Shown here: positions 4,838 through 44,510 of the stretch, in pieces
Position numbering within the stretch: position 1 is the first letter of the stretch
How the letters are laid out: every line of letters begins with the position of its first letter
IMG/VR virus record: IMGVR_UViG_3300028584_000118
Location: 6,648 to 70,647 of that record
Source: a virus
Strand: one strand, 5' to 3'
DNA: 64,000 nt
The notes under the pieces: model-generated
The model's database searches: none
Told to the model about the DNA's origin: nothing
What the model saw: only the letters and a program-made list of their open reading frames with translations
Translations under genes and position numbers: made by a program

Positions 4838-5563
4838 ATGGATAACATCAACGATCAGTTAATTCTTATTTGTGGTAAGTCAGCTACCGGTAAGTCAGCT
4901 TCCTTAATTCATTTGGAAAACCATGAAAGAGTAATGTATTTAAACTGTGAAGCAGGTAAGCGATTACCTTTCAAAAACAAGTTTAAATCATATACAATTA
5001 CCGATCCTCATCAGGTCTTAGAAGCTTTTGATTTTGCAGAAACCAGAGATGATATTGATACTATCGTAGTAGATAGTTTGACGTTCTTAATGGATATGTA
5101 TGAATCTCTCTTTGTTCTCAATTCCACCAATGGAATGAAGGCATGGGGAGATTACTTTCAGTTCTATAAAACACTGATGCAGGAAAAAGTTGCACGTACT
5201 AAGAAGAGTGTCATCTTCATCGCACATACTCTTGATACGTACAACGAGTCAGAAATGGTAATGGAAACCAAAGTGCCTATTAAAGGTGCATTGAAGAACA
5301 ATGGAATAGAAAGTTATTTCAGTGTAGTCATTGCATCTAAAAAAGTACCTTTGAAAGTACTTAAAGAATATGGATCAGACTCTTTGGTTATCACACCCGA
5401 AGAAGAAGCTCTTGGCTTTAAGTATGTCTTCCAAACCAAGATCACTAAGGACACTACAAATGAGCGTCTACGTGGTCCATTAGGCTTGTTTGATACGAAG
5501 GAAACCTTCATTGATAACAATGCTCAACTAGTTTTGCGTAAGCTTCACGATTACTACGCTTAA
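4838..5563 (+). CDS. N4 gp44-like AAA ATPase (Sak4-like recombinase)
   Basis: GKSATGKS Walker A; IVVDS Walker B; immediately upstream of SSB. Confidence 0.85.
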   Translation: MDNINDQLILICGKSATGKSASLIHLENHERVMYLNCEAGKRLPFKNKFKSYTITDPHQVLEAFDFAETRDDIDTIVVDSLTFLMDMYESLFVLNSTNGMKAWGDYFQFYKTLMQEKVARTKKSVIFIAHTLDTYNESEMVMETKVPIKGALKNNGIESYFSVVIASKKVPLKVLKEYGSDSLVITPEEEALGFKYVFQTKITKDTTNERLRGPLGLFDTKETFIDNNAQLVLRKLHDYYA

Positions 5564-5592
5564 CTTTTATTAACCAACTACGAAAGTAAAAA

Positions 5593-6330
5593 ATGTCACT
5601 ATTAAAATCACTCACATCAGACGAATCAATTGAAAACGAAAAAGACTCAGTTGGTGGTAATGGCCCACTGGACTCAGGTATTTATACGTTTAAGATTGTA
5701 TCTGCTTATGTAACCAAAGCAGACTCTGAGGCTGTAGGTCTGGTAGTCAACTTTGAAAATGATGACAAACAGTTCTTACGTCAAACATTGTGGATGACCT
5801 CTGGTAAAGCCAAAGGTGGTAACAACTATTACATCAACAAGAAATCAGGTGAGAAGAAATACTTGCCAGGTTACTTGATGGCTAATAGTTTGGCTTTGCT
5901 TGCTGCAGGTAAAGAGATTAACCAACTCGATACTGAAGATAAAGTGATCCCAATTTACTCAGCTAAATCCAAAGCAGAAGTACCTACAAAAGTACCTATG
6001 ATTATGGATTTGGTAGGTAAAGAAGTTATCTTAGGTGTTATCCGTCAAACAGTCGACAAAACTGTTAAGGATGCAGCAGGTAACTACAATCCAACAGGTG
6101 AGACTCGTGATGAAAACGAATTAGATAAAGTATTCCGTGCAAGCGATCGCATGACTACTTCAGAGATTCGTGCCAAAGCAGAAACACCTGTGTTCATTGA
6201 AACTTGGGCTGCTAAGTGGACCGGTAAAACAAAGAACAAATCTTCAGGTGCTACTGGAGCGTCTGGTACTGCCGGTGCACCTAAAGCAGCAGGAGCATCT
6301 ACTAAGCCAACTACAAGTTTGTTTAGCTAA
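5593..6330 (+). CDS. N4 gp45-like single-stranded DNA-binding protein
   Basis: Synteny; YLPG and DKVF motifs; flexible tail ending SLFS as in N4 SSB. Confidence 0.8.
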   Translation: MSLLKSLTSDESIENEKDSVGGNGPLDSGIYTFKIVSAYVTKADSEAVGLVVNFENDDKQFLRQTLWMTSGKAKGGNNYYINKKSGEKKYLPGYLMANSLALLAAGKEINQLDTEDKVIPIYSAKSKAEVPTKVPMIMDLVGKEVILGVIRQTVDKTVKDAAGNYNPTGETRDENELDKVFRASDRMTTSEIRAKAETPVFIETWAAKWTGKTKNKSSGATGASGTAGAPKAAGASTKPTTSLFS

Positions 6331-6355
6331 TCTTAATAGTTAGTTTTATTAATCT

Positions 6356-6390
6356 AATAGTCTTCTAGGTAAAACTAGGAGACTATTTTT
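6356..6390 (+). terminator. Rho-independent terminator
   Basis: AATAGTCTTCTAG-GTAAAA-CTAGGAGACTATT followed by T-run. Confidence 0.7.
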
Positions 6391-6403
6391 ATTAGGTGTA
6401 ATT

Positions 6404-6727
6404 ATGACGGATACAGTTGACCAAACACAGCAGCCACAAATAGTAGATTTAGGTACGTTCATTAATCTAATCACTGATTGGCACGCAAACAAAGTAGCTT
6501 TCTTAGCTCATCTTAAAGCAGTTCCAGCAGGAGTTAAGATGACATTGAATGATGAAGAGGAGATTCTCTTAGAAGGGGATTTCTTAAAAGGCTTTCAATA
6601 TGCTATGGGAGTAGCTTTATCAGAATTAGGTACATCACCTATTTCTCGTGGGATTATTGTAGAAGTTCCAGAAGCCACACAATCTGAAGTTCAGGTTACC
6701 GGAGAAGGTAATGACACTGTCCACTAA
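6404..6727 (+). CDS. Hypothetical protein
   Basis: AGGTG RBS; operon context. Confidence 0.65.
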   Translation: MTDTVDQTQQPQIVDLGTFINLITDWHANKVAFLAHLKAVPAGVKMTLNDEEEILLEGDFLKGFQYAMGVALSELGTSPISRGIIVEVPEATQSEVQVTGEGNDTVH

Positions 6728-7292
6728 CCAAGCTGGAATACGTGTTGTTGGTTTTGATCCTAGTTTACGTAACTGGGGAATAAGCCAAGGTTACTATGAC
6801 CCGGTTAAAGGTCTTAGCATATCCCAAGTCAGTACACTTTGCCCGGTAGAACTTACTGGCAAACAAGTTAGAAATAACAGTAAGGATTTGGAATGCGCAA
6901 AGCAATTGTGTGAAGGTGCTTTAGAAGCAGCAAAGAATGCTCAGGCTATCTTTGTTGAAGTTCCTATAGGAAGTCAATCAGCAAGAGCTATGGCTTCATA
7001 TGGGATCTGTGTAGGTGTCCTAGGTGCTCTCAGAGCAACTGGAATTCCTTTCTTTGAAGTTACCCCTACAGAAGTCAAGATGGCCTCTGTAGGCTCTCGT
7101 ACAGCATCCAAAGCAGAAATGATCCAATGGGCTTTACAAACTCATCCTGAAGCTCCCTGGTCCCGTTACAAGGAACATGGAGTAATGGTGATAAGTGAAG
7201 CCAAGGTAGAGCATCAAGCTGATGCTACTGCAGCAATCTATGCAGGGTTGGCTTCAAATGCTTTTAAGCAAATGTTGCCATTTTTAAAATAA
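6711..7292 (+). CDS. RuvC-like Holliday junction resolvase
   Basis: VVGFDPSL, IFVEVP and HQADATA give the D/E/D RNase H-fold triad. Confidence 0.85.
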   Translation: MTLSTNQAGIRVVGFDPSLRNWGISQGYYDPVKGLSISQVSTLCPVELTGKQVRNNSKDLECAKQLCEGALEAAKNAQAIFVEVPIGSQSARAMASYGICVGVLGALRATGIPFFEVTPTEVKMASVGSRTASKAEMIQWALQTHPEAPWSRYKEHGVMVISEAKVEHQADATAAIYAGLASNAFKQMLPFLK

Positions 7293-7309
7293 ACTTAGAA
7301 AGGTAAGAA

Positions 7310-7657
7310 ATGAATATCAATCTTAAACAAATTGAAATTGAACAAGCCCTACGTAACTACGTAGTTGATCAGGGTATTAATATTGAAGGTAAGAATGTAT
7401 CTATGGAATTTACTGCCGGCCGTAAAGGTAGTGGCTTGACTGTAGATGTAACTATTACTGACCCAACTATTAAAGCTTCAGGTTTAGCTACTGTTGTAGT
7501 TAAAGCAACTGCCTCAGCCTTAACAACTACAAATGGTTCAACTACAGTAGAAACTGCTGAAGTTGTAACAGCTCAACCAAAAGTAGAAGTAGAAACTACT
7601 GAAGCTGATCCTGGCTATTCTACTGCAGCTCCTACCTCCGGTAGTCTTTTCACTTAA
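7310..7657 (+). CDS. Conserved N4-like hypothetical protein
   Basis: I.L.Q.EIEQAL..YV...GI...GK.V...FTAGRK N-terminus; low-complexity tail ending SLFT. Confidence 0.7.
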   Translation: MNINLKQIEIEQALRNYVVDQGINIEGKNVSMEFTAGRKGSGLTVDVTITDPTIKASGLATVVVKATASALTTTNGSTTVETAEVVTAQPKVEVETTEADPGYSTAAPTSGSLFT

Positions 7658-7663
7658 TCTATT

Positions 7664-7840
7664 ATGGGATTACTTAAAAATATAGGTTACACCCTATTAG
7701 CCATTTTAGTAATCTCAATTTTAGTTGGATTGTTTCTACTGGTAGTATCTGTAGGTGCATTCCTAGTGGCAGCAGCTTTTATAGTTGGTGTCATTTGGTT
7801 TGTAGCTTGGATCATTAAATCAGTTTTTGAGTCCAAGTAA
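7664..7840 (+). CDS. Small membrane protein (58 aa, not in ORF track)
   Basis: MGLLKNIGYTLLAILVISILVGLFLLVVSVGAFLVAAAFIVGVIWFVAWIIKSVFESK; two hydrophobic segments. Confidence 0.65.
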   Translation: MGLLKNIGYTLLAILVISILVGLFLLVVSVGAFLVAAAFIVGVIWFVAWIIKSVFESK

Positions 7841-7851
7841 TTAATTGAATT

Positions 7852-7882
7852 AGAGCCCTCATAAAGAGGGCTCTTCTTTTTT
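7852..7882. terminator. Terminator at convergence of middle and late units
   Basis: AGAGCCCTC-ATAAA-GAGGGCTCT followed by TCTTTTTT. Confidence 0.8.
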
Positions 7883-10800
7883 ATTTAATTAACTTAGCCA
7901 TACTATCTAGAACCAATGTGTCATCCCATACAGTAAAGATCTGACCTGCTCCCATACGGAAAGGATTATTACCAATATGAGCCAAGAAAGAAGAATCAGT
8001 TACTAAAGGCAATGAACTATAGAAATGATTCAAAGCCACTAATCCTAACATCTGCAATGGGTGTTCTTTAGTTGTCTCTAACAATACTCGTTGAATACGG
8101 AAGAAGTATTTAATGAATGGAATGAAACCCATATCATCCATAAACTGAACTTTCTTATCCATCGGTACATCGTAGTTAATGAAAGCTTCACTCACTTTAT
8201 GTACAGCATCCTTCTCAAGCATAGGATTCTTAGCACGCTTAGTTAAGTGTTCAAACAAAACATAACGAGCAACAAAATCTGACATTTGAGTAGTCTTGCT
8301 CAAAGCTTTATATAACTTAGAGTTCCTAGTAACCAATACCGTATTAGCTACATCACGTACTGTTGGATTCACTCTATTTACATACCCCTCTACCTTCTTA
8401 GAGAAATTACTCTTATAAGAGTACTTATCATCTATCTCAGACAAGTCTTCAACAATTGAAGGACGTAAACCAAAATCAATTAATTTCTTAATTGGGCTAC
8501 GGTTAATAGCATCTTCCAATTGAACAATACGTTGTTCCTTCCTAGCAGCATCTCCCCTAATAAATCCCAAATCTCTTTCTAACTTGAGATCAAACAACTC
8601 AGTAGAGTTAGCATCCCATTGACGATATGCCTTAATAGCTACATGATGGTTTTTCATCAATTCACTTAAAGGAACACCATTCGCTTTTAGCAAAGAAATA
8701 TTACTGATGATGTTACCCAACATAACAGTACCGGTACGAATAACAACCACATCCTTAACCAGGGAAACAACTTCTTCCCAACCACGTTGACCACGACGAG
8801 TAACAATGTAGGCCATCTTACGACCATACTCTTCAGCTTCATCAATAAACATACCTTTAGAATGAATAGCGTATGTAGTAAGCATATGCTCTACAACCCA
8901 TTTGAATGCTGTCTCTGCATGGTTTAATGTGTTTGTGTCCTTTTCCCAAATACCACTCAAAGAATACTTACGGAAACCAAACAAAGGTAATACATATTTC
9001 TTACGAACCCAGATACCTTTATTGCTGCCTGTAGCATTACGAATATCTTCCTTCATTGCATAAGGTAACAATCTCCAAATTTCTTGCAGTTCTTTATCTG
9101 AACTCGTATTAGAGATAAAAATAAAATGATCTTGATTGGTTACATAGTTCTCTTTGTAATCCAAAGCTAATGCATCCACGATCACTTTATTTTGTTCTTT
9201 AGCTGTATCCTTACCAAAGGAAGTAGCAGCCATAGTACCCATCACTTGATCAATACGATTATCACGTTCCAAGATTGAATCACGTAATTGATGTGACATT
9301 TCATAACGCCAGTTAACTACTTCCATATTAGGATTCAATAATGGAATAAGGTAGTTACCTTTTTCTTTTCTTGGGTCCCATTGTAATGAAGCAGGAGAAT
9401 ACATCTGAGCCAATAATTTACGCTTAGTATTATTCACTGAAGCCAAATCAGAAGCATTTAATATACCTTCATCCATATTCAAATTACGGTTACTACCAAT
9501 AGCATTAGTACCTTTAGATTTATTAGAATCTAATTGGATTGCTCCGGATACATAAGGCATTGGTGCACCATCTTTTAATACATAGATCTGCTTCTTATCT
9601 GATGATGGATCAGCACTATCTATAAACACACCTGAATGCTGTTCGTAGTCTTGCTTAATTAATTCTTTACCTTCAGTAAGAGTAGTTACTTTAAAAGAAG
9701 TATGTGGATTAATAATCTCTGGCAAGTAACCCTTTACCATGAGCTCAGGTGAATCACTAAACAATCTTTCTTTGGCTTCAATATTCAATTTATGATGCAA
9801 AGATAAGAGCTCTGCAAAACCATTACCATTAGTACGTGAGTTTTCTTTATTAACTAAAGTACTCAAATACTTGCTCTTGTTTTGTCCCATGTAATCGAAT
9901 GCATACAATGTAACAAGCTGATCAATTATCTTCTCTGCTTGTTTTTGTTTTGCTTCTTCCATTGGTGTAGTAGTAGATAAGGCTTCTTTAGAAATAACTA
10001 AAGCATTCTTTAATTGCCCAGCTTCTAAAGCAGACTTACCGCTGATCATGTGAAAACCTAATCCTTTACTTTGTTTAATAAAGAAGAAGGCTCTCTTACC
10101 AAAAGCTTTAATGAGTTGTTTCTCTAAAGACTTAATCTCGCCTGTGCGATAAGAATCATCAGATAACAAGTTACTCAAATCAGCCATAGAATAATTATCA
10201 AGTAAGGTATAAGCACCTGTACGTAACAAACCAGATGTAACTACTCTATGATCTTCATCAGATAAGTAAGAACCATTATCTAAGAAGCCACCAAGTACTG
10301 CTTTACCTAAGCCATTCGCTATGTGTTCACGTTCAGCATTCAATGCAGTAGCGTTACGAACCATTGCAGATACTCGTGGGCCATAACCACGTACATCATT
10401 CATCATGTTCATTAACATACTGTGCTTGCTTTTATCAAACTCATTCCTTGCTTTGGTAAACAAATCCAAAGTATCAGGAATACGATCTTCAAGAAAGATA
10501 CGAGCAATAGCACCAACACCTTGAACAGTACCAAACTTATTATTACGAATGAAGTGGGACTTCAATAATTTACTTATTGAGGCTTTCAATACACTCACAA
10601 TCTTTTGTCCAGCTACATCTAAAGGCTCACCTACTTTAGCATTAGCACGTTGAATTAATGTGTTCTTCTTTCTGGCTTCGATCTCTACTAAACGATTAGT
10701 TAATACCATAATCTTTTCATTGATCTGTAAGTTACCAGTAGTTCTAGTAGCTAAGCCTGAATACAAATTAAGAATGAATTCAAAGATATTAGATAACGTT

Positions 10801-13800
10801 GTATTGATATCTTTACCTATCAATGATTTACGTACTGCACGTTGAGCAGGAATACTTAAAGCATCAAAGATCTTCTTGTTACCTAAACCAAGAGCAACAA
10901 ACGTAGCCAGGTAATCTGATTTACCATTTTGGTTTAGCTTTGCATTAAACATTAAATCATAAAGATGAGTAGCTTCTTGTTGTTCCATTATTGAAGCAGT
11001 AACCCAATCACCGGTAACAAAGTCTTTAGGACTTAATTTGTTCTTAGCAAAGTTGTGTAACTTAATAAGTTCTTGCATAGCAGCAGACACTGTAGCTTCC
11101 GGAGAAGATACTGCATCTTGCATAACAGCCTCTATCTGTTGAGCTACGAATCTTTCTTGCTCAGACATAATTAAATTAGCTGCACCAATCTTAGAAGCTA
11201 ATGGAGCCTGTCCTGTAGCCATTGATTTATTCCATACATCCAATGGAGTTACAGTCTGGTTATTCATATCTGCTTCAGAGAGACTACCAAATGGGCCTCT
11301 GAGAGCATGGACGATTCCAGCCAATAAACTCCGCATATGAAAGTCAAAAGCTCCTGTAGCACCGTTATGAGCCTTACCCAAAGCATCATAGATATCCTGA
11401 GTTGTATAGCTCATGATATTTCTTTGATTTTGCTTAGCCATAGCTAAGGTAATCTGTTCTGCTTTAGTTAAAGAACTTTCAGCTACTTCAGTCAAACCAA
11501 CAAAGTTAATAATCACAGCCTCTAATGCGTTGTTCTTGGTTTGGTTTTCTGGAGTAGTTATACCAAAGAAGTAAATTTTAATTACATCTAAGAATTCTCT
11601 CAGTGCACTAGTTATGCTGCCTTTATTAGAAGAAGCAAAGGTAATAGTTTTCAAGTAATCTCTGAACTCTGTATTAGTTAAACCCCATGACAGCAACTCA
11701 TCTACACTTTCTAATGCAGCATCAAACTTAGAGTCAGGTTTAGAAGCCAATAACTTAGTACGTAACTTTTCTAATTCATCTACGAATTGACTAGCTTTAC
11801 TATTGTCATTGGTTTTAGCATCTCTGATTGTAGTAGCTAATGCAGCATGTAAAAGTTCATGCACAATTACCTCTACTGATGTACCTGAAGTAACATCAAT
11901 ATAAATAGTAGGATTGCCTTCTGCATCAATATGAAACCAACCATTAACAGGGTAATCTGGTCGACTAGCAATCACATCAGATTCTGTTACAGCAACCAGT
12001 TTAAGATTCTCTGGTAACAAATCTTGTATGCCTGAATAAACACTATTAAGATCCCAAGTCATTAAAGAATTAAAGTCGATGTAATCTAGAGTAGGTTTCA
12101 AACCTAATTTAATAGCATCAACTAAATCAGTTTGTTGTTCACCTAAAGTAGCAAAGTTAACTTCTGGTTTAGGAGCTGCTTGTACTTCTGTACCCATAAA
12201 AGGATTACCAGTTAAGTACTCTATAGCAGAACGTACTCTTTCTAATCTTGATTTATTCAAACCAACTTTTGAAATCTTTTCTTTTTCCTTTGCACGGAAC
12301 TCATCACTAACGACGTGTTGGCCTCCTTCCATTGGATATTGATCCACATATCCTAATGTAGATAAGTACTCATGCTTAGTTTGTTCACCAGATATAAGAG
12401 TCACATACAAAGCTTCAAATGTTTCTTGAAGATTCTTTATAGTACTCTTTGAATACAGGTTCTTAATATTTTCTCTGGCTTTAGGTGTCAAAGATTCTAA
12501 GTATTGATCTACTTGATCAGGAGCAGAATAGAGCTCACCAGCTAAAGTAAGAATACTTTTCTCAAGTACATTAAACACTTCAACGATCGGTGAATAATCA
12601 GCAATCAATTCAGCAGTATGCTTATTGATTTCTTTTGCTGTGTTCATAGCATCAGGAACACCAACTAAGATTTCATCATATACGTGATGAGCTTCTACAT
12701 TATTAGCTACTGTCTCCATCATGATAGAAGATTCTAATGAGTGAACCAAAGCAGATAACGTGTAAGCACCTGGAGCCACTACAGTAGTACCTTCACTAGC
12801 TACACTGTACTTTTCTCCATTTACGATTACATTGTTCTTATAAATTGGATTGGTGCTAATACCCATACCTCCTTTACCTAAGAAGATACCTGCTTTCAGG
12901 TTGTTCTCCATTTTAGATAAAGGTGAGTGAGCTACTGGTCTAGCAGCAGCAACCATCTTCTCAATCTTCTTAGTTTGTTCAATAGTCAAATCATGCAAGG
13001 GTACTCTACGTGAAACGCCTTTATCATTTACCTTGGTTTCAAAAGCGATCGAACCATTATCCATACCATCTTGGATAAGCTTTTCTTTTTTCATACCAAG
13101 CATAAACTCATAAATGTTATGAGCTAAGTCTGCAGCTTTAGTTAAGTCATTACGCATGACTATGTAATTCTCAAACTCAGAAGAGAAGGTTTGACCCATC
13201 TTCTCACCCATAGTAATACCAACACTAAAACGAATATGTTGTTTCTGTACTTTGGATAAAGGGGTATTCAACAATTCTTCCATACTCATGTAAGGAAGTT
13301 TGTATGTACTAAAATCACTACCAGAAGAGAATTCAATCAAGTCATTGATAGAATCAATCAAAGATTTACTATCCGGCATAGCTACATCTGGGTTCTCTTT
13401 CTTTGCTTTGTAATACTCAGTCATTTTCTTCTCAAGAAATTTATTGTATGAACCAATAAATTCTTCAGAAGTTTTCTGAACTAAGCTGTAAATACTAGAA
13501 CCAAATTTAAAAGCTGTTGACGGTGTCTTAGGTAAACTACGCCCTGCTTTAGTGATCTCACCTTTTAATAATAACGGCCCATTTACATATTCAAAACTCT
13601 TGATCAGTTTTAAATAACGAGCAGAAGAACTATCAAATCTATCATCCAACTCAAAGAATTTCTTTGGGCGCTTCATTAAGTTACGAAGCATCATACTTGT
13701 CAAATGCTGATACTGATCATTGTTACCAGGATTAGCATACTCAACAAAGTTCTTAGGCCCATTGAGAATATTACGATAGAAGCCTGTACGTGCACCTACT

Positions 13801-37032: not shown

Positions 37033-37061
37033 AATAGCTCCTTATGGGAGCTATTTGTTTT
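37033..37061 (+). terminator. Probable terminator
   Basis: AATAGCTCC-TTATG-GGAGCTATT followed by TGTTTT. Confidence 0.7.
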
Positions 37062-37078: not shown

Positions 37079-37990
37079 ATGGATAACATGCTGCAAGTTG
37101 TGCGTCAAGAATCAGTAGAGATGAAATATAACCGTAAACATATAGATGATTATATACGTTCCTTTATTAAATCAAACGATCATTTAATTAATAAAACAGA
37201 ACAAGGTATTAAGCTCATTGAAAAGTATATGAGTAAGGCTTATTACACTACAAAGAATGCACGTATTAAACAGTTAGAAGGTATGGATTTACATGCTCTT
37301 GTAATTGATATCTATGTAGGTATTGCTTACTGTGTTACTCCTGAATTATTTACATCTATATCAGCTCAGATGGCTGGTAGATTAAAGTTCAGTGATAAAC
37401 CAGATGCAATCAAAACTATTGCAGAGCTATTAGCTGTGCTTTGTAATACAGATGTATTTGATATATTCAAACGTACTAAGTTCTCTTCATTAGAGATTAA
37501 ATCTAATATTGAGTTACCAGATGAGATGATGGAATTCATTATCAATACTCAATTCCTACCACCAATGTTATGTGAACCTTTAGAGGTTACCAATAACTCT
37601 ACTAGTGGTTACCTTACTCATAATGACTCTGTCATTTTAGGTAAGGGTAATCATCATACCGGTGAATTATGTTTGGATGTAATAAACAAAATGAACAAGG
37701 TATGTTTAAAGCTTGATACAGCCTTTCTAAGCCATGTTGAGGAAAACCCTACTTCTGTATTGGACACACAAGAAAAACGTGACCAATGGCTTGTATTCAA
37801 GAAGCAGAGCTATTCCTTTTATTTACTGATTGCAAAACAATCCAATGAATTCTACTTGACTCATAAAGTTGATAAACGAGGAAGAATATATTCCCAAGGT
37901 TATCACCTTAATACGCAAGGTACTCCGTTTAAGAAGGCTATGGTTGAGCTGGCTAATGAAGAACTAATTGAAGGGGTTTATACGATATGA
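37079..37990 (+). CDS. RNA polymerase II subunit 1 (N4 gp15-like)
   Basis: PMLCEP; SVILGKGNHH; HKVDKRGRIY (DxRGR); GYH.N.QG..FKKA. Confidence 0.92.
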   Translation: MDNMLQVVRQESVEMKYNRKHIDDYIRSFIKSNDHLINKTEQGIKLIEKYMSKAYYTTKNARIKQLEGMDLHALVIDIYVGIAYCVTPELFTSISAQMAGRLKFSDKPDAIKTIAELLAVLCNTDVFDIFKRTKFSSLEIKSNIELPDEMMEFIINTQFLPPMLCEPLEVTNNSTSGYLTHNDSVILGKGNHHTGELCLDVINKMNKVCLKLDTAFLSHVEENPTSVLDTQEKRDQWLVFKKQSYSFYLLIAKQSNEFYLTHKVDKRGRIYSQGYHLNTQGTPFKKAMVELANEELIEGVYTI

Positions 37991-38376
37991 ATAATGATAA
38001 GGATAAAGACGGTGTTAGTTTGTCGGTTGATGCTTTAGGCTATATACAAGGCTTAGGCATTTATGGTGTTGATACAGGAAGGATTCTTAATAGCACTACT
38101 ATAGGCTATCGGGATCTTTCAGATAATAAACCTAAGTACTTCTTTGTGGATGATGAGGTTATTAAGGTTAATGAAATGCCTGATCAACATCATAGATTAA
38201 GAAGCCAAGGACAGTATGTATATGACTGTGCTACCTCTTGTTTTTTAGTGGGTGTGCGTCGTGAATATGAAAGCTTATTTGGTAGTAAAGAAAATAGAAT
38301 TATATTCATAATTGCTCGTGAAGATAGAGTACCTAAAGAATTTAAAACACAGTTACTTTTGTTAGGATTTATATGA
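37987..38376 (+). CDS. Array paralogue 1/17
   Basis: Tail RVPKEFKTQLLLLGFI; ATGA overlap with RNAP1. Confidence 0.8.
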   Translation: MNNDKDKDGVSLSVDALGYIQGLGIYGVDTGRILNSTTIGYRDLSDNKPKYFFVDDEVIKVNEMPDQHHRLRSQGQYVYDCATSCFLVGVRREYESLFGSKENRIIFIIAREDRVPKEFKTQLLLLGFI

Positions 38377-38612
38377 CCACAAATATTTATCTTTATATTG
38401 ATGGAGAGATTAGTGCTCATGAACATTATCCATTAACTATGAAGTATAGAGAAACAGGTATTCTTGCTTATCATAAACCAGCAAATAGATTTGAAGTATC
38501 TAACCGCGATAATATATTTACGCCTATAGCATCTAGAGCTTATCACGTTAAATATTCTGAGAATGCTCTAGCTGATTTCAAAACTAAATTGTTATTGATG
38601 GGAGTGATGTAA
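38373..38612 (+). CDS. Array paralogue 2/17
   Basis: Tail ALADFKTKLLLMGVM. Confidence 0.8.
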   Translation: MTTNIYLYIDGEISAHEHYPLTMKYRETGILAYHKPANRFEVSNRDNIFTPIASRAYHVKYSENALADFKTKLLLMGVM

Positions 38613-38863
38613 TGAGCACTATATTATTCTTTTGGTACAAGGGTGAATTGATAGAAAGAACTTCATTCCCTGATAATGATTCTGATATGAGAAAGGATAC
38701 TTCTTGCATTGGATATTCTGTATTAAGGAGACATTTTATTTCTCCCAAGAATACTGCGGGATATGCCTTTAATACTTTTTTTTTTCATATAGATGATGCA
38801 GATATAGATAGAGTAGTTCCTACTGAGTTCAGAACAAGACTTTTATTAATGGGGATTATATGA
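38612..38863 (+). CDS. Array paralogue 3/17
   Basis: Tail VVPTEFRTRLLLMGII. Confidence 0.8.
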   Translation: MSTILFFWYKGELIERTSFPDNDSDMRKDTSCIGYSVLRRHFISPKNTAGYAFNTFFFHIDDADIDRVVPTEFRTRLLLMGII

Positions 38864-39120
38864 AAGAAGATGAAGGATTATTCTTTTGGTTTAAAAATGA
38901 ATTAATTGTAGCTGATGATTATCTTGTTCATGGGTCAAAAATGAGAGTAGATCTTAACTGTTTTTGCTTTAATAAATATAGGAATAGCTTTGCTAGTCCA
39001 CTTCCTGATAAAGGTTTTGAATTCAATATTTTCAAAAGTATTTATGAAGATGATCCTAATGAAACCAGAAAAGTTCCTAATGAATTTAAAACTCAATTAC
39101 TACTATTAGGAGCCCTATGA
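38860..39120 (+). CDS. Array paralogue 4/17
   Basis: Tail KVPNEFKTQLLLLGAL; resembles paralogue 3 along its length. Confidence 0.8.
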   Translation: MKEDEGLFFWFKNELIVADDYLVHGSKMRVDLNCFCFNKYRNSFASPLPDKGFEFNIFKSIYEDDPNETRKVPNEFKTQLLLLGAL

Positions 39121-39377
39121 CATCTTATTTTTCAAATAGAAAAGAGCACCTACTTTACGTATGGTTTCAAGGCAAGGTCTTTAGCTATCCTTATGATGGT
39201 TTAGCTATGCATATGTATGAATGGTACATACCAGGTACATACATTATGGATGGTCAATATAGATTCTTTGGTTTAATTAAGGAACGTGATGACAAAGAAT
39301 TTGATACTGTGTTTGCACCTGATGCAGATGTTCCATCTGAATTTAAAACAGCATTATTACTCTTAGGAGTGTTATGA
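39117..39377 (+). CDS. Array paralogue 5/17
   Basis: Tail DVPSEFKTALLLLGVL. Confidence 0.8.
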   Translation: MTSYFSNRKEHLLYVWFQGKVFSYPYDGLAMHMYEWYIPGTYIMDGQYRFFGLIKERDDKEFDTVFAPDADVPSEFKTALLLLGVL

Positions 39378-39637
39378 ATACTAAAGGACCTATCTACATT
39401 ATATTTCTTGAAGATGGTACTCATAGAGTACTTACTAAAATGGAGTGGATTAGAGAAGCTAAACCAGAAAGAGAAAGAGTAGTTTTAGTCTATAACAGTG
39501 AAACTAGTTTTTATGGATCTCATTGGGTTTATTCAGATAAAGGTAAAACTAATTACGAAGATATAGATAAGAAAACTAAACACTTAGTAACTGAAGCCAT
39601 GAAAACAACTGTACTTTTATATGGGTATGAACCATGA
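39374..39637 (+). CDS. Array paralogue 6/17
   Basis: Tail VTEAMKTTVLLYGYEP. Confidence 0.75.
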   Translation: MNTKGPIYIIFLEDGTHRVLTKMEWIREAKPERERVVLVYNSETSFYGSHWVYSDKGKTNYEDIDKKTKHLVTEAMKTTVLLYGYEP

Positions 39638-39885
39638 GTAATTCTAATGAATTTGTATTCTATGTATTCCAGCCTAACGGTGATCACTTTACTAGTAATA
39701 ATGCAGAAGAGGTTTTAACTAAAAGTGTGGATAATACTTACGCAGTATATATGCATGAAAATGGCGATGCTCAATGGAATATTAGAAATGCAAAGGGATT
39801 AATAAACCCTGAGCTATTTACACCTATACCAACAAACTTAGTACCTAAGAGTATTCAAACTAAGTTTCTACTTTTAAGGATATAA
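39634..39885 (+). CDS. Array paralogue 7/17
   Basis: Tail LVPKSIQTKFLLLRI. Confidence 0.75.
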   Translation: MSNSNEFVFYVFQPNGDHFTSNNAEEVLTKSVDNTYAVYMHENGDAQWNIRNAKGLINPELFTPIPTNLVPKSIQTKFLLLRI

Positions 39886-39887
39886 GC

Positions 39888-40157
39888 ATGGAACCAAAAT
39901 ACTATGTAGTGAGTGTCAAAACAGGAGAAATAAAGGAATCTCATTTAGGTGAAATATACATAGATGGTTTTGTTTTACAAGGTGAATACGTATGTCAAGT
40001 AGCCGGAAATAAAGACTACTGTAGAACATACATAAGAACAGATGTTGAAATGAATAAAATCATAAATAATGCAGGTCAGATTATTTATCCATACGAAGAA
40101 GAACATCCAGCACAAATCCCAGATAAATTAAAAACACTCTTACTTCTTATAGGGTAA
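39888..40157 (+). CDS. Array paralogue 8/17
   Basis: Tail QIPDKLKTLLLLIG. Confidence 0.8.
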   Translation: MEPKYYVVSVKTGEIKESHLGEIYIDGFVLQGEYVCQVAGNKDYCRTYIRTDVEMNKIINNAGQIIYPYEEEHPAQIPDKLKTLLLLIG

Positions 40158-40161
40158 ACCA

Positions 40162-40419
40162 ATGGCTAATAAGTATAGATACGTTGTATGGAATCCAAAT
40201 GGAACCATTATAGAAACTGATGACGCTTTTAGAGTATTAGAGAAACCTGTATTAGGTTCTTATTGTATGACTCAGCATATTGACTCCACTGATTTATCTT
40301 ATTACTGCACTTGGTTTGTATATGAGAATAATCCTTTTCCTAGATTCAATCCTGTTGATATCTATAAGGTTCCTGCATTGATTAAAACCACTTTCCTTTT
40401 GAAAGGTATAAACATATGA
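40162..40419 (+). CDS. Array paralogue 9/17
   Basis: Tail KVPALIKTTFLLKGINI. Confidence 0.8.
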   Translation: MANKYRYVVWNPNGTIIETDDAFRVLEKPVLGSYCMTQHIDSTDLSYYCTWFVYENNPFPRFNPVDIYKVPALIKTTFLLKGINI

Positions 40420-40709
40420 ACATAAACACGAGTTTAAATGCTCTTATGCATTCTTTAAGTAGCCAACTTAATTCACATGATTCTCTTATTTATGTATGGA
40501 AAAATAATGAGATTAATCTTCTCGAAGATTTGATAGCCAAGGAAGGATTTCCTGATGATTGTTATGTAGTGGATACACGATTTGATACTTCAAAACCAGA
40601 TAGTCGTTATGGTATGTGGAAAAGCACAACCGACAAATGGGAATCGAAAGATCTGGGTGAATTTCCTACTGAATTCAGAACAGCTTTATTACTTATAGGA
40701 ATTAATTAA
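40416..40709 (+). CDS. Array paralogue 10/17
   Basis: Tail EFPTEFRTALLLIGIN. Confidence 0.8.
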   Translation: MNINTSLNALMHSLSSQLNSHDSLIYVWKNNEINLLEDLIAKEGFPDDCYVVDTRFDTSKPDSRYGMWKSTTDKWESKDLGEFPTEFRTALLLIGIN

Positions 40710-40710
40710 A

Positions 40711-40971
40711 ATGGATAAAAATGTCTGCTATGCGTATCAAAAAGATGGTCAATGGGTTTTAGAATTTAAGGATTATGGCTTACTAGTTGAAGAAAGAGAC
40801 ATGCCTAAGAAGTGTTTTAAACTTTTTAGTAATATCAAGTCTTATAAAGGCTGTGTGTACTACAAAAGAAATACTAAGTTTAAGGTTAGTAATCTTTATC
40901 TTCCTAAAGAGTTACTTACTCTTTTAATGTTAAATAACTTCATTTTAGCTACTAGAGAAAGAGGGCCTTAA
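40711..40971 (+). CDS. Array paralogue 11/17
   Basis: Tail LPKELLTLLMLNNF plus extension. Confidence 0.75.
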   Translation: MDKNVCYAYQKDGQWVLEFKDYGLLVEERDMPKKCFKLFSNIKSYKGCVYYKRNTKFKVSNLYLPKELLTLLMLNNFILATRERGP

Positions 40972-40972
40972 T

Positions 40973-41275
40973 ATGGATACTAATGCAAGGTTTTGTTATG
41001 TTCATCCCGATGTAGACCAAGATCCTGATAAACCAATAAAGTATGTTTATACATTTAGTGACGAAGTAATAATAGATGTACAATTTCCTCCATGTACATT
41101 TAGATTTTTAACTAAAGATATATTATTAGGTTCAGGAAATATTTTATATATTCGTCCGAGTACAAAAACTTTTTCTTACCTAACTAAAGATACTCCAATA
41201 CCTAAAGAAATACTTACTCAGTTACTTCTTTATGGTTTTAACGCTTCTATGGGACTTCATGACAATGGGCAATAA
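40973..41275 (+). CDS. Array paralogue 12/17
   Basis: Tail IPKEILTQLLLYGF plus extension. Confidence 0.75.
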   Translation: MDTNARFCYVHPDVDQDPDKPIKYVYTFSDEVIIDVQFPPCTFRFLTKDILLGSGNILYIRPSTKTFSYLTKDTPIPKEILTQLLLYGFNASMGLHDNGQ

Positions 41276-41564
41276 TCAAACCAATATTATGGAGTCTTAT
41301 AAGGAGTCTTGGGATACGATCGTATTCCTCCCTAACCAAGAACCTCAGTTAATAATGTGGGATCACCTGCATACCATACATATTAATGAAGGCTATACAG
41401 GATTTGTTTATGCCTATTATCCTGAAGATGCTCGCTCTCCTTGGACATCATTAACTGTTGAGCAAATTAGATCAGAGGATTCTACTTCTGGTTTTCAACT
41501 ATGTTACGCAGAGGATATTAATCCTATATTCAAAACTCAATTACTTTTACTAGGAGTCACTTAA
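41232..41564 (+). CDS. Array paralogue 13/17 (true start probably 41259-41289)
   Basis: Tail INPIFKTQLLLLGVT. Confidence 0.75.
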   Translation: MVLTLLWDFMTMGNNQTNIMESYKESWDTIVFLPNQEPQLIMWDHLHTIHINEGYTGFVYAYYPEDARSPWTSLTVEQIRSEDSTSGFQLCYAEDINPIFKTQLLLLGVT

Positions 41565-41565
41565 T

Positions 41566-41826
41566 ATGTATGACTCAGCTAATGCAGATAAAATTTACTT
41601 CTGGGTAAATGAAGAAGTAGTGAAGGTAGCTATTGATGAGAATGATGAAACAATCACAGGAGGAGAATACAGTGAGTGTCCTTATATTGATTGTAGATTT
41701 TCAGAAGATGATGTTAGAAGATATGGTATGTGGGATTGTAAAGCTAACCCATCTTGGGTTGACATACCTAAGAATAAATTACCTACTAAATTCTTAGCCT
41801 CTCTACTTCTTATGGGGATTAACTAA
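41566..41826 (+). CDS. Array paralogue 14/17
   Basis: Tail LPTKFLASLLLMGIN; shares RYGMW with paralogue 10. Confidence 0.8.
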   Translation: MYDSANADKIYFWVNEEVVKVAIDENDETITGGEYSECPYIDCRFSEDDVRRYGMWDCKANPSWVDIPKNKLPTKFLASLLLMGIN

Positions 41827-41827
41827 C

Positions 41828-42064
41828 ATGGACTTATATCACTTATATGGTAAGAACATAGAAGAACTAGAAGTTGTAATAAGAGAGGACGGTACAGTAA
41901 ATTTTCAAGATTTAGTAATAGAAGATTCTTACCTAATAATCAAATATCTTGGAAGTGGTTTTAGTTACTATTACGCAGGTAAATCAGGAGTTTGGCTTAA
42001 TGTAGAAAAAGAAGCTTTTACTAATGAAGCTAAAACACTCTTACTTTTAAATGGGCTTTACTAA
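41828..42064 (+). CDS. Array paralogue 15/17
   Basis: Tail FTNEAKTLLLLNGLY. Confidence 0.75.
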   Translation: MDLYHLYGKNIEELEVVIREDGTVNFQDLVIEDSYLIIKYLGSGFSYYYAGKSGVWLNVEKEAFTNEAKTLLLLNGLY

Positions 42065-42285
42065 TGAATCCATCCTATAAACGCTATACCTACTTCAAAC
42101 CAAATGGTAAGGAAGTAAAAACTAATGTATGGTTCTTTCCTACTGTCATGCCTAAGTTCACTTTAGTAAAAGAGAGTGGCTACATACTCTCAAATCATAG
42201 AGGTACTACATGGGCTGAGATTGAACCACATGAGCAACACTTATTCCCAGCTAGAATTTTAACCTTGGCTTTACTTCTTAAATAA
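42064..42285 (+). CDS. Array paralogue 16/17
   Basis: Tail FPARILTLALLLK. Confidence 0.75.
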   Translation: MNPSYKRYTYFKPNGKEVKTNVWFFPTVMPKFTLVKESGYILSNHRGTTWAEIEPHEQHLFPARILTLALLLK

Positions 42286-42294
42286 GGAAGCAAC

Positions 42295-42591
42295 ATGAAT
42301 GAATTTTTTCAGAGTATTCAAGATCAACAAAAAGAGACTATGTATCCTTTTGCTTTGATCAATGACAAAGGATTAATTGTAAGTAACTTAGTGATGCCGG
42401 CATCTACATTACCTTTGGGTTATGTAAGCTATAAACGTCATGACAATACATTGTTCATTGTCAAAGATCGTAAAGGCTTTCACTACTGGGAATCTATTCT
42501 TCCAAGTGAGTTTACTGATCCACGTTTCAAAACAGCATTCTTAATTCTCGGTGTTCAATTTGATGAAGTCAAAGAAGAACCAGAAGAATAA
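42295..42591 (+). CDS. Array paralogue 17/17
   Basis: Tail DPRFKTAFLILGVQF plus acidic end DEVKEEPEE. Confidence 0.75.
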   Translation: MNEFFQSIQDQQKETMYPFALINDKGLIVSNLVMPASTLPLGYVSYKRHDNTLFIVKDRKGFHYWESILPSEFTDPRFKTAFLILGVQFDEVKEEPEE

Positions 42592-42645: not shown

Positions 42646-43908
42646 ATGACAATGCAATTATTCACTGGCTTCGAATACTTAATGATCGACGTAGCAAACC
42701 AATTCGGTAAAGACAAATTAGTATTCAACGATCGTATTGATTGGGTTAAAGAAAACTGGGATCATTTAGAAGCTCTCACAAGCGATTCAGATCCAAAGAC
42801 ACGTCCTTTGTATATCAAAGCTGTTATGGCTTTACGTAAGGCTCAACAAGGTGTTCCTACAGGCCATTTAGTTGGTTTCGATTCTGTATGTTCTGGGATT
42901 CAAATCATGTCTGCAGCTACCGGCTGCTTCTCTGGTGCTATGGCAACAGGGTTAGTTAACCCTAATGTACGTGCAGATGCATATACAGAATTAACTACAG
43001 TCATGAATACAATCCTAGCTGATCAGAACCTAGCTGTTCATGTAACTCGTGCATCAGCTAAAGAAGCTTTCATGACTAGCTCATACGGTTCTAAGGCCAA
43101 ACCAATAGAAATATTTGGTGAAGATACTCCTGAGTTGTTTGCATTCTATAAAGCTGCAGAAACTGTAGCTCCAGGTGCATGGGAGCTCTTGAATGACTCA
43201 TTGAACACATGGCAACCATATGCGTTATTCCATGAATGGATGCTTCCTGATGGCTTCCTAGCTCGTGTAAAGGTAATGAAAAAGAAGGAATTACGTATTG
43301 AAGTTGATGAGCTTGATCATGCTACTTTCACTTACCAATATTATGATAATGAAGGTAAGGAGACTGGCTTGAGTAATGTAGCTAATGTGGTTCATTCCAT
43401 TGATGCTTACGTATTACGTTCTATGCATCGTCGTTGTAATTATGATGTAGGAATGGTTACTAGAGCTCTTACATTCATAAACCAAAAATTAGATTATCGT
43501 AATGGAGCTGAGTTGGATTTGGTTAATCCGGATACCTCTTCTAAGCTTGCATCACAAGTAATCTATTACAAAACCAGTGGTATAACTGATCCAGTAGTAT
43601 TTCCCTATATTACTTCAAGTAATACTACTTACATGCCTTCATCTATGCTTATAGATTTACAGCGTATTGCATTGATGATGCTTGACCATAAACCATTTGA
43701 ACTGGTTACTGTTCATGATGAGTTTAAATGCCATGCAAATAACATGAACCATGTACGTAAACACTATGTAGAAATATTAGCTCAGATTGCTGATAGTAAT
43801 ATCCTCTCAGATATTATGTCTCAATTACATGGCAGTAAAGGTACATATACTAAGTTGTCTAACAATTTAAGTTCTTACATAAGAGAGTCAAACTATGCAT
43901 TGTCCTGA
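42646..43908 (+). CDS. RNA polymerase II subunit 2 (N4 gp16-like)
   Basis: GFDSVCSGIQ (motif A), RASAKEAFMTSSYGS (B), ANVVHSIDA, TVHDEF (C); ends YALS. Confidence 0.95.
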   Translation: MTMQLFTGFEYLMIDVANQFGKDKLVFNDRIDWVKENWDHLEALTSDSDPKTRPLYIKAVMALRKAQQGVPTGHLVGFDSVCSGIQIMSAATGCFSGAMATGLVNPNVRADAYTELTTVMNTILADQNLAVHVTRASAKEAFMTSSYGSKAKPIEIFGEDTPELFAFYKAAETVAPGAWELLNDSLNTWQPYALFHEWMLPDGFLARVKVMKKKELRIEVDELDHATFTYQYYDNEGKETGLSNVANVVHSIDAYVLRSMHRRCNYDVGMVTRALTFINQKLDYRNGAELDLVNPDTSSKLASQVIYYKTSGITDPVVFPYITSSNTTYMPSSMLIDLQRIALMMLDHKPFELVTVHDEFKCHANNMNHVRKHYVEILAQIADSNILSDIMSQLHGSKGTYTKLSNNLSSYIRESNYALS

Positions 43909-44182
43909 AGAGAAAGATAAAGTTAATAAACTTCTAGAGAGTAGAAAAGGAATGACATTCCATAATATGCTCACACCTCCTTTACAATTACTCTGGTCTG
44001 TTAATAAGTGTGCTTGCTGTAGTAAATTAGATTCAAAATTTAACTGGGTAGCTATCATGACAAATCCAGAAAACACTCAGTATAAGATAGAGTGTTCTTA
44101 CTGTTATTTACATACAGGGGTTTATTCAAATATAGAGGAAACTGTTAGTGTTTGGAATACTAATATGCTTTTAATGTCATGA
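43895..44182 (+). CDS. Lar (restriction alleviation)-like Zn-ribbon protein
   Basis: CACC...Y.IECSYC...EETVSVWN matches the Lar-family CxxC...CxxC...A..WN layout. Confidence 0.55.
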   Translation: MHCPEEKDKVNKLLESRKGMTFHNMLTPPLQLLWSVNKCACCSKLDSKFNWVAIMTNPENTQYKIECSYCYLHTGVYSNIEETVSVWNTNMLLMS

Positions 44183-44433
44183 TTACCAAATACAGCCAAA
44201 CTATTTATGATAGTACTCTTTCAAATTACTTGTTTACGATGAATATTGATCCAGCATCAATGACTTGTAATTGTAAGAGACCTACTATAGTGACTTCTCA
44301 ACATTACAGTATAAAAGATGATCAAATGCAATATGGCATTAGATGTATGAAATGTAAAAAAGACGTACCACACTTAGATAATTTGTTGGGTGCTATTAAT
44401 CTCTGGAAGACTATAGTTTTATTATCTTCTTAA
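44179..44433 (+). CDS. Second Lar-like Zn-ribbon protein
   Basis: CNC...YGIRCMKC...GAINLWK; ATGA overlap with previous gene. Confidence 0.5.
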   Translation: MITKYSQTIYDSTLSNYLFTMNIDPASMTCNCKRPTIVTSQHYSIKDDQMQYGIRCMKCKKDVPHLDNLLGAINLWKTIVLLSS

Positions 44434-44472: not shown

Positions 44473-44510
44473 AGTGAGTATATCCATTCGGGTATACTCA
44501 CTTTTTTTTT
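44473..44510 (+). terminator. Rho-independent terminator
   Basis: AGTGAGTATATCC-ATTC-GGGTATACTCACT followed by T-run. Confidence 0.9.

Follow-up and report, generated by a model that had tools for sequence, protein, structure and literature searches.

In phage N4 the genes for the two subunits of RNA polymerase II (RNAPII), gp15 and gp16, are adjacent. An earlier note on the DNA studied here started from this adjacency, which is correct for N4 itself but does not extend to all other N4-like phages. For these, zero to eight genes have been described between the small (RNAP1) and the large (RNAP2) subunit gene, and an arrangement with such spacers is called 'G7C-type' (Amgarten et al. 2017, BMC Genomics 18:346, PMC5418858). 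The published spacer genes are heterogeneous; the slot of roseophage EE36P1, for instance, holds one HNH endonuclease and seven hypothetical genes (PMC5418858).

The locus analysed here uses the same slot in the same operon. It lies in a window of 64,000 nt, whose positions serve as coordinates throughout, taken from the 73.1-kb whole genome of an uncultured N4-like phage. By their PHROG matches (Table 1), RNAP1 and RNAP2 of this phage form an N4-type split RNAPII operon (gp15/gp16), in which a T7-like RNAP is encoded in two parts, N-terminal and C-terminal, by separate genes, and the same genome has a gene for a vRNAP of 3400 aa. With 17 genes between the subunits the organisation is of the 'G7C-type', which is defined by at least one non-polymerase gene in this place. 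However, the published spacers are related neither to each other nor to the genes found here, whereas in our phage the slot is taken up by one paralogous family, whose copy number reaches about twice the published maximum and which, unlike the published spacers, is met again in this place throughout an uncultured clade. The slot genes of EE36P1 gave E-values of 2.7 or worse against the family HMM. While a permissive slot with spacer genes was already known, its occupation by one family is unpublished.

The features of the region are listed in Table 1. The ORF list contains exactly the 17 consecutive ORFs of 73-129 aa that had been noted previously (37987-38376 to 42295-42591); they are co-directional and translationally coupled, and the first start codon overlaps the RNAP1 stop (ATGA). 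Seven of the 16 junctions between ORFs are -4 overlaps (ATGA), two are -1 overlaps (TAATG) and six are gaps of 1-9 nt, so the pattern of short overlaps or tiny gaps described before is seen at 15 of 16 junctions, the exception being a 44-nt overlap of m12 and m13. The listed m13 start at 41232 lies inside the Y-G codons of m12 and has no Shine-Dalgarno (SD) sequence, while the ATG at 41259 has GGGA 5 nt upstream, hence the overlap is probably due to a mis-set start and m13 probably begins at 41259 (101 aa). As no + strand terminator was found between 37055 and 44473, and as stop and start codons overlap, a single transcription unit seems to comprise RNAP1, the array, RNAP2 and two small genes.

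Table 1. Features of the RNAP1-RNAP2 region, in window positions. HMM E refers to the match of each array protein to the family HMM.
Feature	Position	Strand	Length (aa)	HMM E	Remarks
Terminator-like hairpin	37033..37055	+			10-pair stem then T-run; closes upstream unit, 24 nt before RNAP1
RNAP1, small subunit of N4-type RNA polymerase II	37079..37990	+			phrog_2166 'N4-like RNA polymerase', E 3e-100
m01	37987..38376	+	129	3.5e-15	core plus ~45-aa N-terminal extension; tail VPKEFKTQLLLLGFI
m02	38373..38612	+	79	5e-11	tail LADFKTKLLLMGVM
m03	38612..38863	+	83	1.5e-11	nearest paralogue m04
m04	38860..39120	+	86	1.4e-13	
m05	39117..39377	+	86	1.3e-17	
m06	39374..39637	+	87	7.4e-8	degenerate tail MKTTVLLYGYEP
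m07	39634..39885	+	83	2.4e-8	paired with m09
m08	39888..40157	+	89	2.5e-7	
m09	40162..40419	+	85	4.8e-13	
m10	40416..40709	+	97	8e-23	canonical: Y-V-W, V-V-D, R-Y-G-M-W, W, FPTEFRTALLLIGIN; modelled
m11	40711..40971	+	86	3.7e-8	basic (pI 9.4); tail LPKELLTLLMLNN plus 9-aa extension
m12	40973..41275	+	100	1.8e-7	12-aa extension after tail; Gly codon GGT
m13	41232..41564	+	110 as listed	7.3e-8	
m14	41566..41826	+	86	5.7e-23	second canonical member (R-Y-G-M-W)
m15	41828..42064	+	78	3.7e-8	
m16	42064..42285	+	73	3.4e-5	most divergent; basic (pI 9.8)
m17	42295..42591	+	98	5.7e-9	last; acidic extension (QFDEVKEEPEE) after tail
RNAP2, large subunit of N4-type RNA polymerase II	42646..43908	+			phrog_2051, E 5.5e-149
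Strong terminator-like hairpin	44473..44502	+			first + strand hairpin after 37055

The family HMM matched all 17 array proteins (E 3e-5 to 6e-23), and when the whole 73.1-kb genome was searched with a profile, these members and no others came up. Among 1.84 billion representatives the profile gave 64 matches, of which about 47 were outside this genome; all were metagenomic, with no match in cultured phages. The consensus reads YFW..G.V / CVD / RYG.W / W..IP / FP.EFKT.LLLLGV, and the proteins show no cysteine pattern. No Pfam match fell below E 0.016 and no Pfam family recurred, PHROG gave no match for the members, the atlas no neighbours, and none of the sources searched a name. These results bear out the suspicion that the family is undescribed, and judged from sequence the array genes are genuine members of one small-protein family, each of them conserved. 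Descent from the C-terminal segment of RNAP1 was rejected (profile-profile hhalign probability 0.06).

The search for further arrays that the earlier note had proposed showed that copy number does vary between related phages. We examined the context of eight loci ranging from 34% to 55% GC, and in seven of seven with family members these occupied the RNAP1/RNAP2 slot, with one (L003), two (L013), six (L006 and L008), 11 (L011) and 14 (L009) genes, and at least one in L007, whose contig breaks off within the slot. The eighth locus, L004, has no copy there. The sole match outside the slot was marginal (L007:150-515, E 0.004). Including the present genome, the family thus ranges from 0 to 17 copies among phages whose RNAP2 proteins are 51-69% identical, and its carriers are an uncultured clade within the N4-like phages (Schitoviridae).

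Such confinement to one slot may reflect a functional link with RNAPII instead of a general accessory function. The paralogues would then be accessory subunits docked by a shared C-terminal helix onto the RNAP1/RNAP2 heterodimer, which their variable bodies would modulate, for example in promoter, template or anti-termination specificity or in the timing of the early-to-middle switch. The slot position in every context across the GC range, the translational coupling to RNAP1, and a tail that hardly changes between phages whose hosts differ widely, as would fit a conserved phage-encoded partner, are all consistent with this. On the other hand, working RNAPII genes exist without the family (L004 and N4 itself) or with a single copy (L003), so the family seems dispensable for RNAPII as such, and 17 regulators would be extravagant for one small polymerase. 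Further, the slot position is weak evidence for such a role because unrelated genes and homing endonucleases are known to collect there (PMC5418858). We consider this explanation improbable.

The tail motif of the array members is P-x-E-F-K-T-x-L-L-L-x-G. The Thr and each central Leu are present in 16 of 17 proteins, the Gly in 14 and the Pro in 12, m06 being degenerate, and the shared C-terminal motif described previously is therefore real. The same holds for the aromatic N-terminal hairpin, Y-x-W-x-x-G, which is near-invariant in relatives outside the array (Y 43/48, W 47/49); these relatives also keep the tail motif. Within this array the tail is nearly invariant, while the core motifs W28, D53, R-Y-G and W75 decay. 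The idea of a constant tail on a variable body thus stands for this array as far as constancy is concerned, but the tail is no detachable tag, since it is predicted to form the C-terminal helix of the domain and in several relatives is followed by up to 31 residues.

An AF2 model of m10 was confident (pLDDT 91.9, pTM 0.74), with the tail as the C-terminal helix at 85-93 (block pLDDT 92-98). In this model the core is predicted to be a domain of about 75 residues with a beta-hairpin, a helix, three strands and the C-terminal helix. The model of m16 showed a beta-meander and a C-terminal helix at 63-71, and because its confidence is modest (pLDDT 64.6) one fold for all 17 proteins is only likely. 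Fold-library searches with the predicted model, including Foldseek, the atlas and an exhaustive structural search, gave no recognisable relative. The best match of the exhaustive search, the RnlB antitoxin (PDB 6y2p_D; rmsd 3.6 A over 72 residues), reached Z 3.3, where the tool states a typical best chance score of 7-8, and so gives no sign of kinship. GYF and GYF_2 domains turn up repeatedly among the weak matches from Foldseek and the atlas and share a similar element order (beta-beta-alpha-beta-beta) and conserved aromatics, but our proteins add one more strand and the conserved C-terminal helix, and we rejected membership (Foldseek probability at most 0.21; atlas TM 0.41, below 0.45; no Pfam match at E <=10).

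It should be noted that the DNA encoding the tail carries a second signal. At 11 of 12 coupled junctions the tail Gly codon is GGA or GGG, against 21% genome-wide (p 3e-7), and in m12 and m17 it is GGT, with an extension separating the Gly from the next start. The tail Gly codon has thus come to serve as the SD sequence of the next cistron as well. Selection on the tail itself acts on the amino acids, since its Leu and Thr codons are mixed in background proportions and the motif is kept across GC regimes.

These observations bear on a reading in which the tail has no common partner and is conserved only as the helix at the core of a small fold and as the ribosome-binding site of the next gene in a packed operon, the paralogues having unrelated, redundant or weak functions. 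The high pLDDT of the helix in the monomer model and the SD signal in the Gly codon agree with it, as does the finding that only hydrophobic or aromatic residues, Pro and Gly occupy the conserved positions, which is typical of fold determinants. A separate array in Acinetobacter phage Presley (KF669658, gp22-27; L001:5012-7214) also raises the thought that packing or coupling may constrain such tails in general, as its six consecutive small proteins all end in the LLG-type motif A-[RK]-x-x-L-[LAI]-G-[IAL]. Like our array it lies in an N4-like early/middle region and joins a constant hydrophobic C-terminal motif to a variable body, but it follows RNAP2, in a different slot, and its proteins are longer (113-135 aa). 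No homology was detected: all HMM E-values were at least 0.75, and hhalign gave a probability of 3.3% in an alignment limited to 26 tail columns. However, SD coding would account for no more than the Gly and the residues beside it, leaving out P-x-E-F-K-T-x-L-L-L, where synonymous sites vary freely; the motif persists without a close next gene or with extensions of 12-31 residues; and near-invariance of the tail during decay of the core motifs is unexpected if only the fold is at stake. We regard a purely structural and translational tail as a serious, albeit rather unlikely, alternative.

The tail could also be a short linear motif, Q-L-L-L-L-G-V, for a conserved host machine, either a peptide like those that bind the sliding clamp or a non-polar C-terminus that would act on host proteases as degron or decoy. 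Sliding-clamp-binding motifs are peptides of the QL[SD]LF or QLxLxL type at a flexible terminus, which bind the clamp cleft; that of Pol IV is QLVLGL. The x-L-L-L-G-V of the tail loosely resembles such hexapeptides, it usually stands 1-5 residues from the C-terminus, and its near-identity across phages of different hosts would suit a universally conserved target. Yet the motif is predicted within a folded helix and not in a disordered peptide, 12-31 residues follow it in several members, and the Gln position is variable (Q/H/A/K/T), which makes this a very doubtful candidate.

The earlier note saw in the array a hypervariable, accordion-like library with ongoing duplication. Of the sub-pairs named in its support, m03/m04 (41% identity, E 1e-18) and m10/m14 (35%, E 1e-9) were recovered, whereas m11/m12 is marginal (E 0.011); m07/m09 (30%, E 6e-7) had been overlooked. 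The value for m03/m04 is the highest protein identity within the array. DNA repeats are confined to the tail-coding stretches (61-79% identity), and neither near-identical copies nor a tandem-repeat signal (TRF) were found in the array. For about half of the members the best match lies in the array of another phage, and m17 and the last L011 array gene are reciprocal best matches. Given this identity ceiling, the tail-only repeats and the matches across phages, the array is old. Its genes arose through tandem duplication in place, then diverged deeply and were in part lost (birth-and-death); recent amplification did not produce it.

The selection estimates rest on one close relative covering two genes, with dN/dS of 0.09 (dS 0.56) for m17 against the L005 relative, 88% identical in DNA, and 0.29 for the C-terminal 42 codons of m16. 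They indicate strong purifying selection on m17, and the word hypervariable is hence misleading: the paralogues are deeply diverged, but each copy is conserved. Poxviruses offer a conceptual parallel in the ankyrin/PRANC F-box-like proteins, families of constant dock and variable body, and in the K3L gene accordions. There, too, many paralogues share a short C-terminal element and copy number differs by lineage, but neither sequence nor fold relates them to our array, for which docking would be hypothetical, and the near-identical repeats and positive selection that mark an active accordion were looked for here and not seen. An active accordion, with copies rapidly gained, lost and diversified under positive selection in an arms race, would fit the differing copy number of related phages (L011, whose RNAP2 is 69% identical, has 11 genes and the present phage 17) and the two within-lineage pairs m03/m04 and m07/m09. 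Against it stand the maximum identity, the lack of near-identical copies, of repeats beyond the tails and of a tandem-repeat signal, and the dN/dS values of m17 and m16, which show neither positive nor relaxed selection. For the present state of the array this reading is already largely refuted, and we find it hardly credible.

Overall, the best explanation, to which we assign a probability of about 0.45, is an old birth-and-death family of early accessory proteins with one scaffold and a shared-contact helix. The accessory nature is supported by the 0 to 17 copies at 51-69% RNAP2 identity and by a slot known to take unrelated genes (PMC5418858). The proteins would serve host takeover or counter-defence. 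The helix, in which an F is followed by four consecutive Leu with no variable face, would be the keystone of the fold and, from its conservation pattern, is most likely also a shared contact surface, facing another copy, a paralogue or one conserved partner; alternatively, the four Leu may lie buried within a single molecule, with the space between sheet and helix 1 as one candidate. What sets the paralogues apart in specificity would be their diverged loops and surfaces.

The interval between the genes for the small and large subunits of an N4-type RNA polymerase II (RNAP1 and RNAP2) holds exactly 17 plus-strand ORFs in the ORF listing. They are the same 17 that the earlier note had set out as an array of small proteins, and all of them (m01 to m17, numbered in order) are matched by one family HMM with E-values from 3e-5 to 6e-23. 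Searched in all six frames with the profile, the complete genome yielded the array's 17 members and no other match. The virus record is 73.1 kb long with an estimated completeness of 99%, and judged by its genes the virus is an N4-like podovirus, as it has a virion RNA polymerase gene of 3400 aa and the flanks of the array match the N4 RNA polymerase II PHROGs.

When the 17-member profile was run against 1.84 billion cluster representatives, 64 proteins were found at E 1e-3 or better, about 47 of them from outside this genome. The outside members show the family pattern much more sharply than the array itself, with the consensus Y-F-W-x-x-G-x-V, C-V-D, R-Y-G-x-W, W-x-x-I-P and F-P-x-E-F-K-T-x-L-L-L-L-G-V in this order; the canonical copies in the window are m10 and m14. 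In the alignment of outside members the Pro and Phe of the tail, the shared C-terminal motif that is degenerate in m06, are present in 49/49 sequences and the three central Leu in at least 46/49. Pfam and PHROG models matched none of the members, no source held a name for any of them, and a tblastn comparison of three members with 50,697 deposited phage genomes gave noise only (E 0.8 or worse). The degenerate tail pattern scanned through viral contigs gave 0 matches, and the language-model atlas search with the family gave no usable match. The profile matches, together with the missing models and names and the tblastn noise, lead us to conclude on sequence grounds that this is a genuine but small family, undescribed and at present known from metagenomes only. 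In L009, one of the outside loci compared, the first four slot genes (the slot being the space between RNAP1 and RNAP2; L009:6690-8008) fail the family HMM yet have tail-like ends (KTALLLVQG, ETLLLLQRN, FKTKLLLLN); profile searches probably underestimate the size of the family.

The AlphaFold2 model of m10, built on a 49-sequence alignment, has a mean pLDDT of 91.9 and a pTM of 0.74. It predicts first an N-terminal helix particular to m10, then an aromatic hairpin (strands 25-29 and 32-35), a helix (36-43), a strand (49-53), a short helix, two further strands (65-69 and 74-77) and a last helix (85-93), which is the tail. Fold relatives were sought by Foldseek in PDB, BFVD, AFDB clusters and AFDB Swiss-Prot, and by exhaustive VIA-align (48,161 chains), a VIA second look and the ESM atlas, with noise only. 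The top exhaustive VIA-align match was RnlB at Z 3.3, where unrelated models typically reach 7-8, and GYF-type domains, which have the beta-beta-alpha-beta-beta order in common with the model, recurred as weak matches with a probability never above 0.21. A confident m10 model with no recognisable relative suggests that the fold is new, and the impression in the earlier note that this is not a described family is borne out at the level of fold as well. The model of m16, the most divergent member, reached a pLDDT of 64.6 on an 85-sequence family alignment and shows a three-strand meander followed by a C-terminal helix, on which basis one fold common to all 17 seems likely. A likeness in motif order between RNAP1 and the family (VD / R.Y.G / P.FK.A..L) prompted the idea that the family originated from the RNAP1 3' end, which was rejected at an hhalign probability of 0.06.

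The array genes are tightly coupled, with seven ATGA overlaps, two TAATG junctions, six gaps of 1-9 nt and a single 44-nt overlap between m12 and m13. The last of these is probably an artefact of choosing the first ATG; the listed m13 start lies inside Tyr-Gly codons of m12 and lacks a ribosome-binding site. With GGGA 5 nt upstream, the ATG at 41259 is the likelier start. No terminator-like hairpin was found on the plus strand between the two that bracket the region, therefore the stretch from RNAP1 through the array and RNAP2 to two small Cys-rich genes looks like a single transcription unit. Sigma-70-like promoter matches between 33.5 and 45.5 kb were rarer than in shuffled sequences (33 vs 58.7), as expected for a phage using its own polymerases. 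The two Cys-rich genes (CxxC-type) directly follow RNAP2 and have no PHROG match; their termini, ...NMLLMS and ...TIVLLSS, loosely echo the array tail.

Features of the RNAP1-RNAP2 region in the window and occupancy of the same slot in outside loci
Feature	Coordinates	Strand	Family genes in slot	GC	Remark
Virion RNA polymerase gene, 3400 aa		minus
Terminator-like hairpin	37033-37055	+			5' bracket of RNAP1-array-RNAP2 and two small genes
RNAP1, N4 RNA polymerase II small subunit	37079-37990				PHROG match E 3e-100
Array m01-m17	37987-42591	+	17
m12/m13 overlap as listed	41232-41275				m13 listed start 41232
m17	42295-42591	+
RNAP2, N4 RNA polymerase II large subunit	42646-43908				PHROG match E 5.5e-149
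Two small Cys-rich genes	43895-44433
Terminator-like hairpin	44473-44502	+			3' bracket of RNAP1-array-RNAP2 and two small genes
L003			1	41%	RNAP1 60% identical
L007			at least 1	34%	directly after RNAP1; contig ends within slot
L013			2	55%
L006			6	55%
L008			6	51%	HNH-like ORF ahead
L011			9 passing HMM	37%	11 slot genes
L009			8 passing HMM	35%	14 slot genes
L004			0

In every context retrieved (seven occupied loci) the family is placed between RNAP1 and RNAP2; the sole match outside the slot, L007:150-515, is marginal (E 0.004). The majority of the slot genes in the outside loci pass the family HMM and nearly all carry the tail motif; slot counts run from 0 to 17. RNAP2 of these phages is 51-69% identical to that of the window, and RNAP2 of the nearest cultured phages, the Acinetobacter phages Presley and At2, about 45%. 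Just upstream of the six-gene array of L008 lies an ORF resembling HNH/AP2-type homing endonucleases (L008:112-531), consistent with what is known of the slot, which attracts elements of this kind. The slot itself is already known, as the 'G7C-type' organisation, in which the spacer genes are unrelated and number from zero to eight (Amgarten et al. 2017, PMC5418858), and the published maximum is that of roseophage EE36P1 (PMC5418858), whose spacers are unrelated to the array family and to one another. What is new is the family, its confinement to the slot, the apparently new fold and the scale: across a clade the slot is filled by one paralogous family, which reaches 17 copies where the published record is eight unrelated genes.

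Presley has six consecutive proteins of 113-135 aa downstream of RNAP2 (5012-7214), all ending in A-[RK]-x-x-L-[LAI]-G-[IAL]. This LLG-type ending is like the tail, but no homology to the window family was detected, nor was any for the At2 arrays and EE36P1 spacers; apparently it is a second, unrelated paralogue array with a constant tail, in a cultured N4-like phage. To judge from the Presley tails, N4-like early and middle regions may more generally favour small, tightly coupled genes whose products end in a conserved helix. In At2, proteins of about 92-118 aa located after RNAP2 (7134-9101 and 11095-12009) form a third tail-sharing run, with the different motif L-x-x-[LI]-P-x-x-E-A-...-Y.

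The earlier note had described the array as hypervariable and still duplicating, and neither description survived. The most similar pair within the array, m03/m04, is only 41% identical, followed by m10/m14 (35%) and m07/m09 (30%); Tandem Repeats Finder detected no tandem array, and the only repeats at the DNA level are the tail-coding segments, at 61-79% identity. About half of the members have their best match in the array of another phage. The product of m17 and that of the last L011 gene (L011:8814-9107) are reciprocal best matches, each continuing beyond its tail into an acidic extension (QFDEVKEEPEE and LDPIEVEEDDDQNQP, respectively), and look like a positionally conserved 'terminal' member. 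Selection was tested with a 695-bp contig of a close relative (88% DNA identity), which covers m17 and part of m16; a value for RNAP2 was discarded as invalid, since a one-codon indel threw the comparison out of register. For m17 the dN/dS was 0.09 at a dS of 0.56, and for the last 42 codons of m16 it was 0.29. These low values and the cross-phage best matches indicate that the copies are individually maintained by purifying selection, and the history of the array reads as old tandem duplication, deep divergence and turnover (birth-and-death). An active accordion was rejected on the same pair identities, blank repeat search, cross-phage matches and dN/dS values, and we hold it to be highly improbable.

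The tail is the best-kept part of the array, near-invariant and in that sense constant, as the earlier note had it, while the canonical positions W28, D53, R-Y-G and W75 have mostly decayed. Gene conversion or concerted evolution was rejected as the cause of this constancy because synonymous sites differ freely and long identical repeats are absent. The Thr codons of the tail are ACA, ACT and ACC, its Leu codons (TTA, CTT, CTA, TTG, CTC) occur in background proportions, and the motif is retained from 34% to 55% GC; by these codon patterns the tail is under selection as protein. At 12 junctions the tail Gly codon lies no more than about 15 nt ahead of the next start, and in 11 of these it is GGA or GGG; GGR accounts for 21% in the long genes of the phage (p 3e-7) and, within the array bodies, for 33% (p 4e-5). 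Two members with an extension between the Gly and the next start, m12 and m17, have GGT, the generally preferred codon. The Gly codon thus serves both as residue and as ribosome-binding site of the next gene, which bears out a separate note on this stretch. As sole cause of the tail such a Shine-Dalgarno constraint was rejected, since it accounts for the codon choice at Gly and its neighbours only.

The tail is not a detachable tag, as it forms a helix of the folded domain in the m10 model and 12-31 residues lie beyond it in several relatives; that it is a hub-docking or degron motif we regard as improbable. In a domain of about 75 residues a surface helix should have one face free to vary. 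Since F87 and L91-L94 leave the tail helix with no variable face, we infer that it additionally provides a contact surface, be it for another copy, a paralogue or a common partner. It is possible that the helix is buried between the sheet and helix 1. A tail that is purely structural and translational, with no common partner, could draw on such burial and on the double use of the Gly codon; we find it rather doubtful.

We tentatively favour, at a probability of roughly 0.45, that the proteins are putative early accessory factors that serve host takeover or counter-defence and share a contact helix. In favour are their place in an early operon, their dispensability (0-17 copies), purifying selection on each copy and the pattern of a scaffold with a variable surface. 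A DNA-mimic role was set aside, given that the majority are mildly acidic (pI 4.3-6.8), that two members are basic (9.4 and 9.8) and that extreme charge is absent. Further, we speculate that the array might be a 'constant-helix, variable-surface' adaptor library, although we think this unlikely. The invariant C-terminal helix would dock each paralogue on one conserved hub, either the RNAPII of the phage itself or some host machine that is conserved universally, and each paralogue would show a different surface, giving up to 17 interchangeable specificity modules per phage, all on a fold for which no relative is known. Such a library, if true, would be the equivalent, in bacterial viruses, of the F-box/PRANC-type families found in eukaryotic viruses. 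Encoded between its two subunit genes, the proteins might also be accessory subunits of RNAPII, which seems slightly more unlikely still; the co-fold of RNAP1, RNAP2 and m10 residues 22-97 scored 0.00, a score that speaks neither way on binding.

No part of phage genomes is less understood than the small early genes, and it is among them that most functions in host takeover and counter-defence have come to light. The array defines a clean new family with a clear consensus, a confident predicted structure lacking a recognisable relative and a fixed genomic address, and it comes with a natural copy series from 0 to 17 across related phages. The Gly codon that acts as both residue and ribosome-binding site is a tidy example of translational coupling shaping protein termini. 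Even if the proteins are redundant fillers, this is the largest occupancy of the RNAP1/RNAP2 slot so far in N4-like phages, and it indicates that a hypervariable-looking array can be old and constrained. Should the invariant helix prove to dock all members alike, the array would offer specificity modules as a library ready for use, and a route to its hub.
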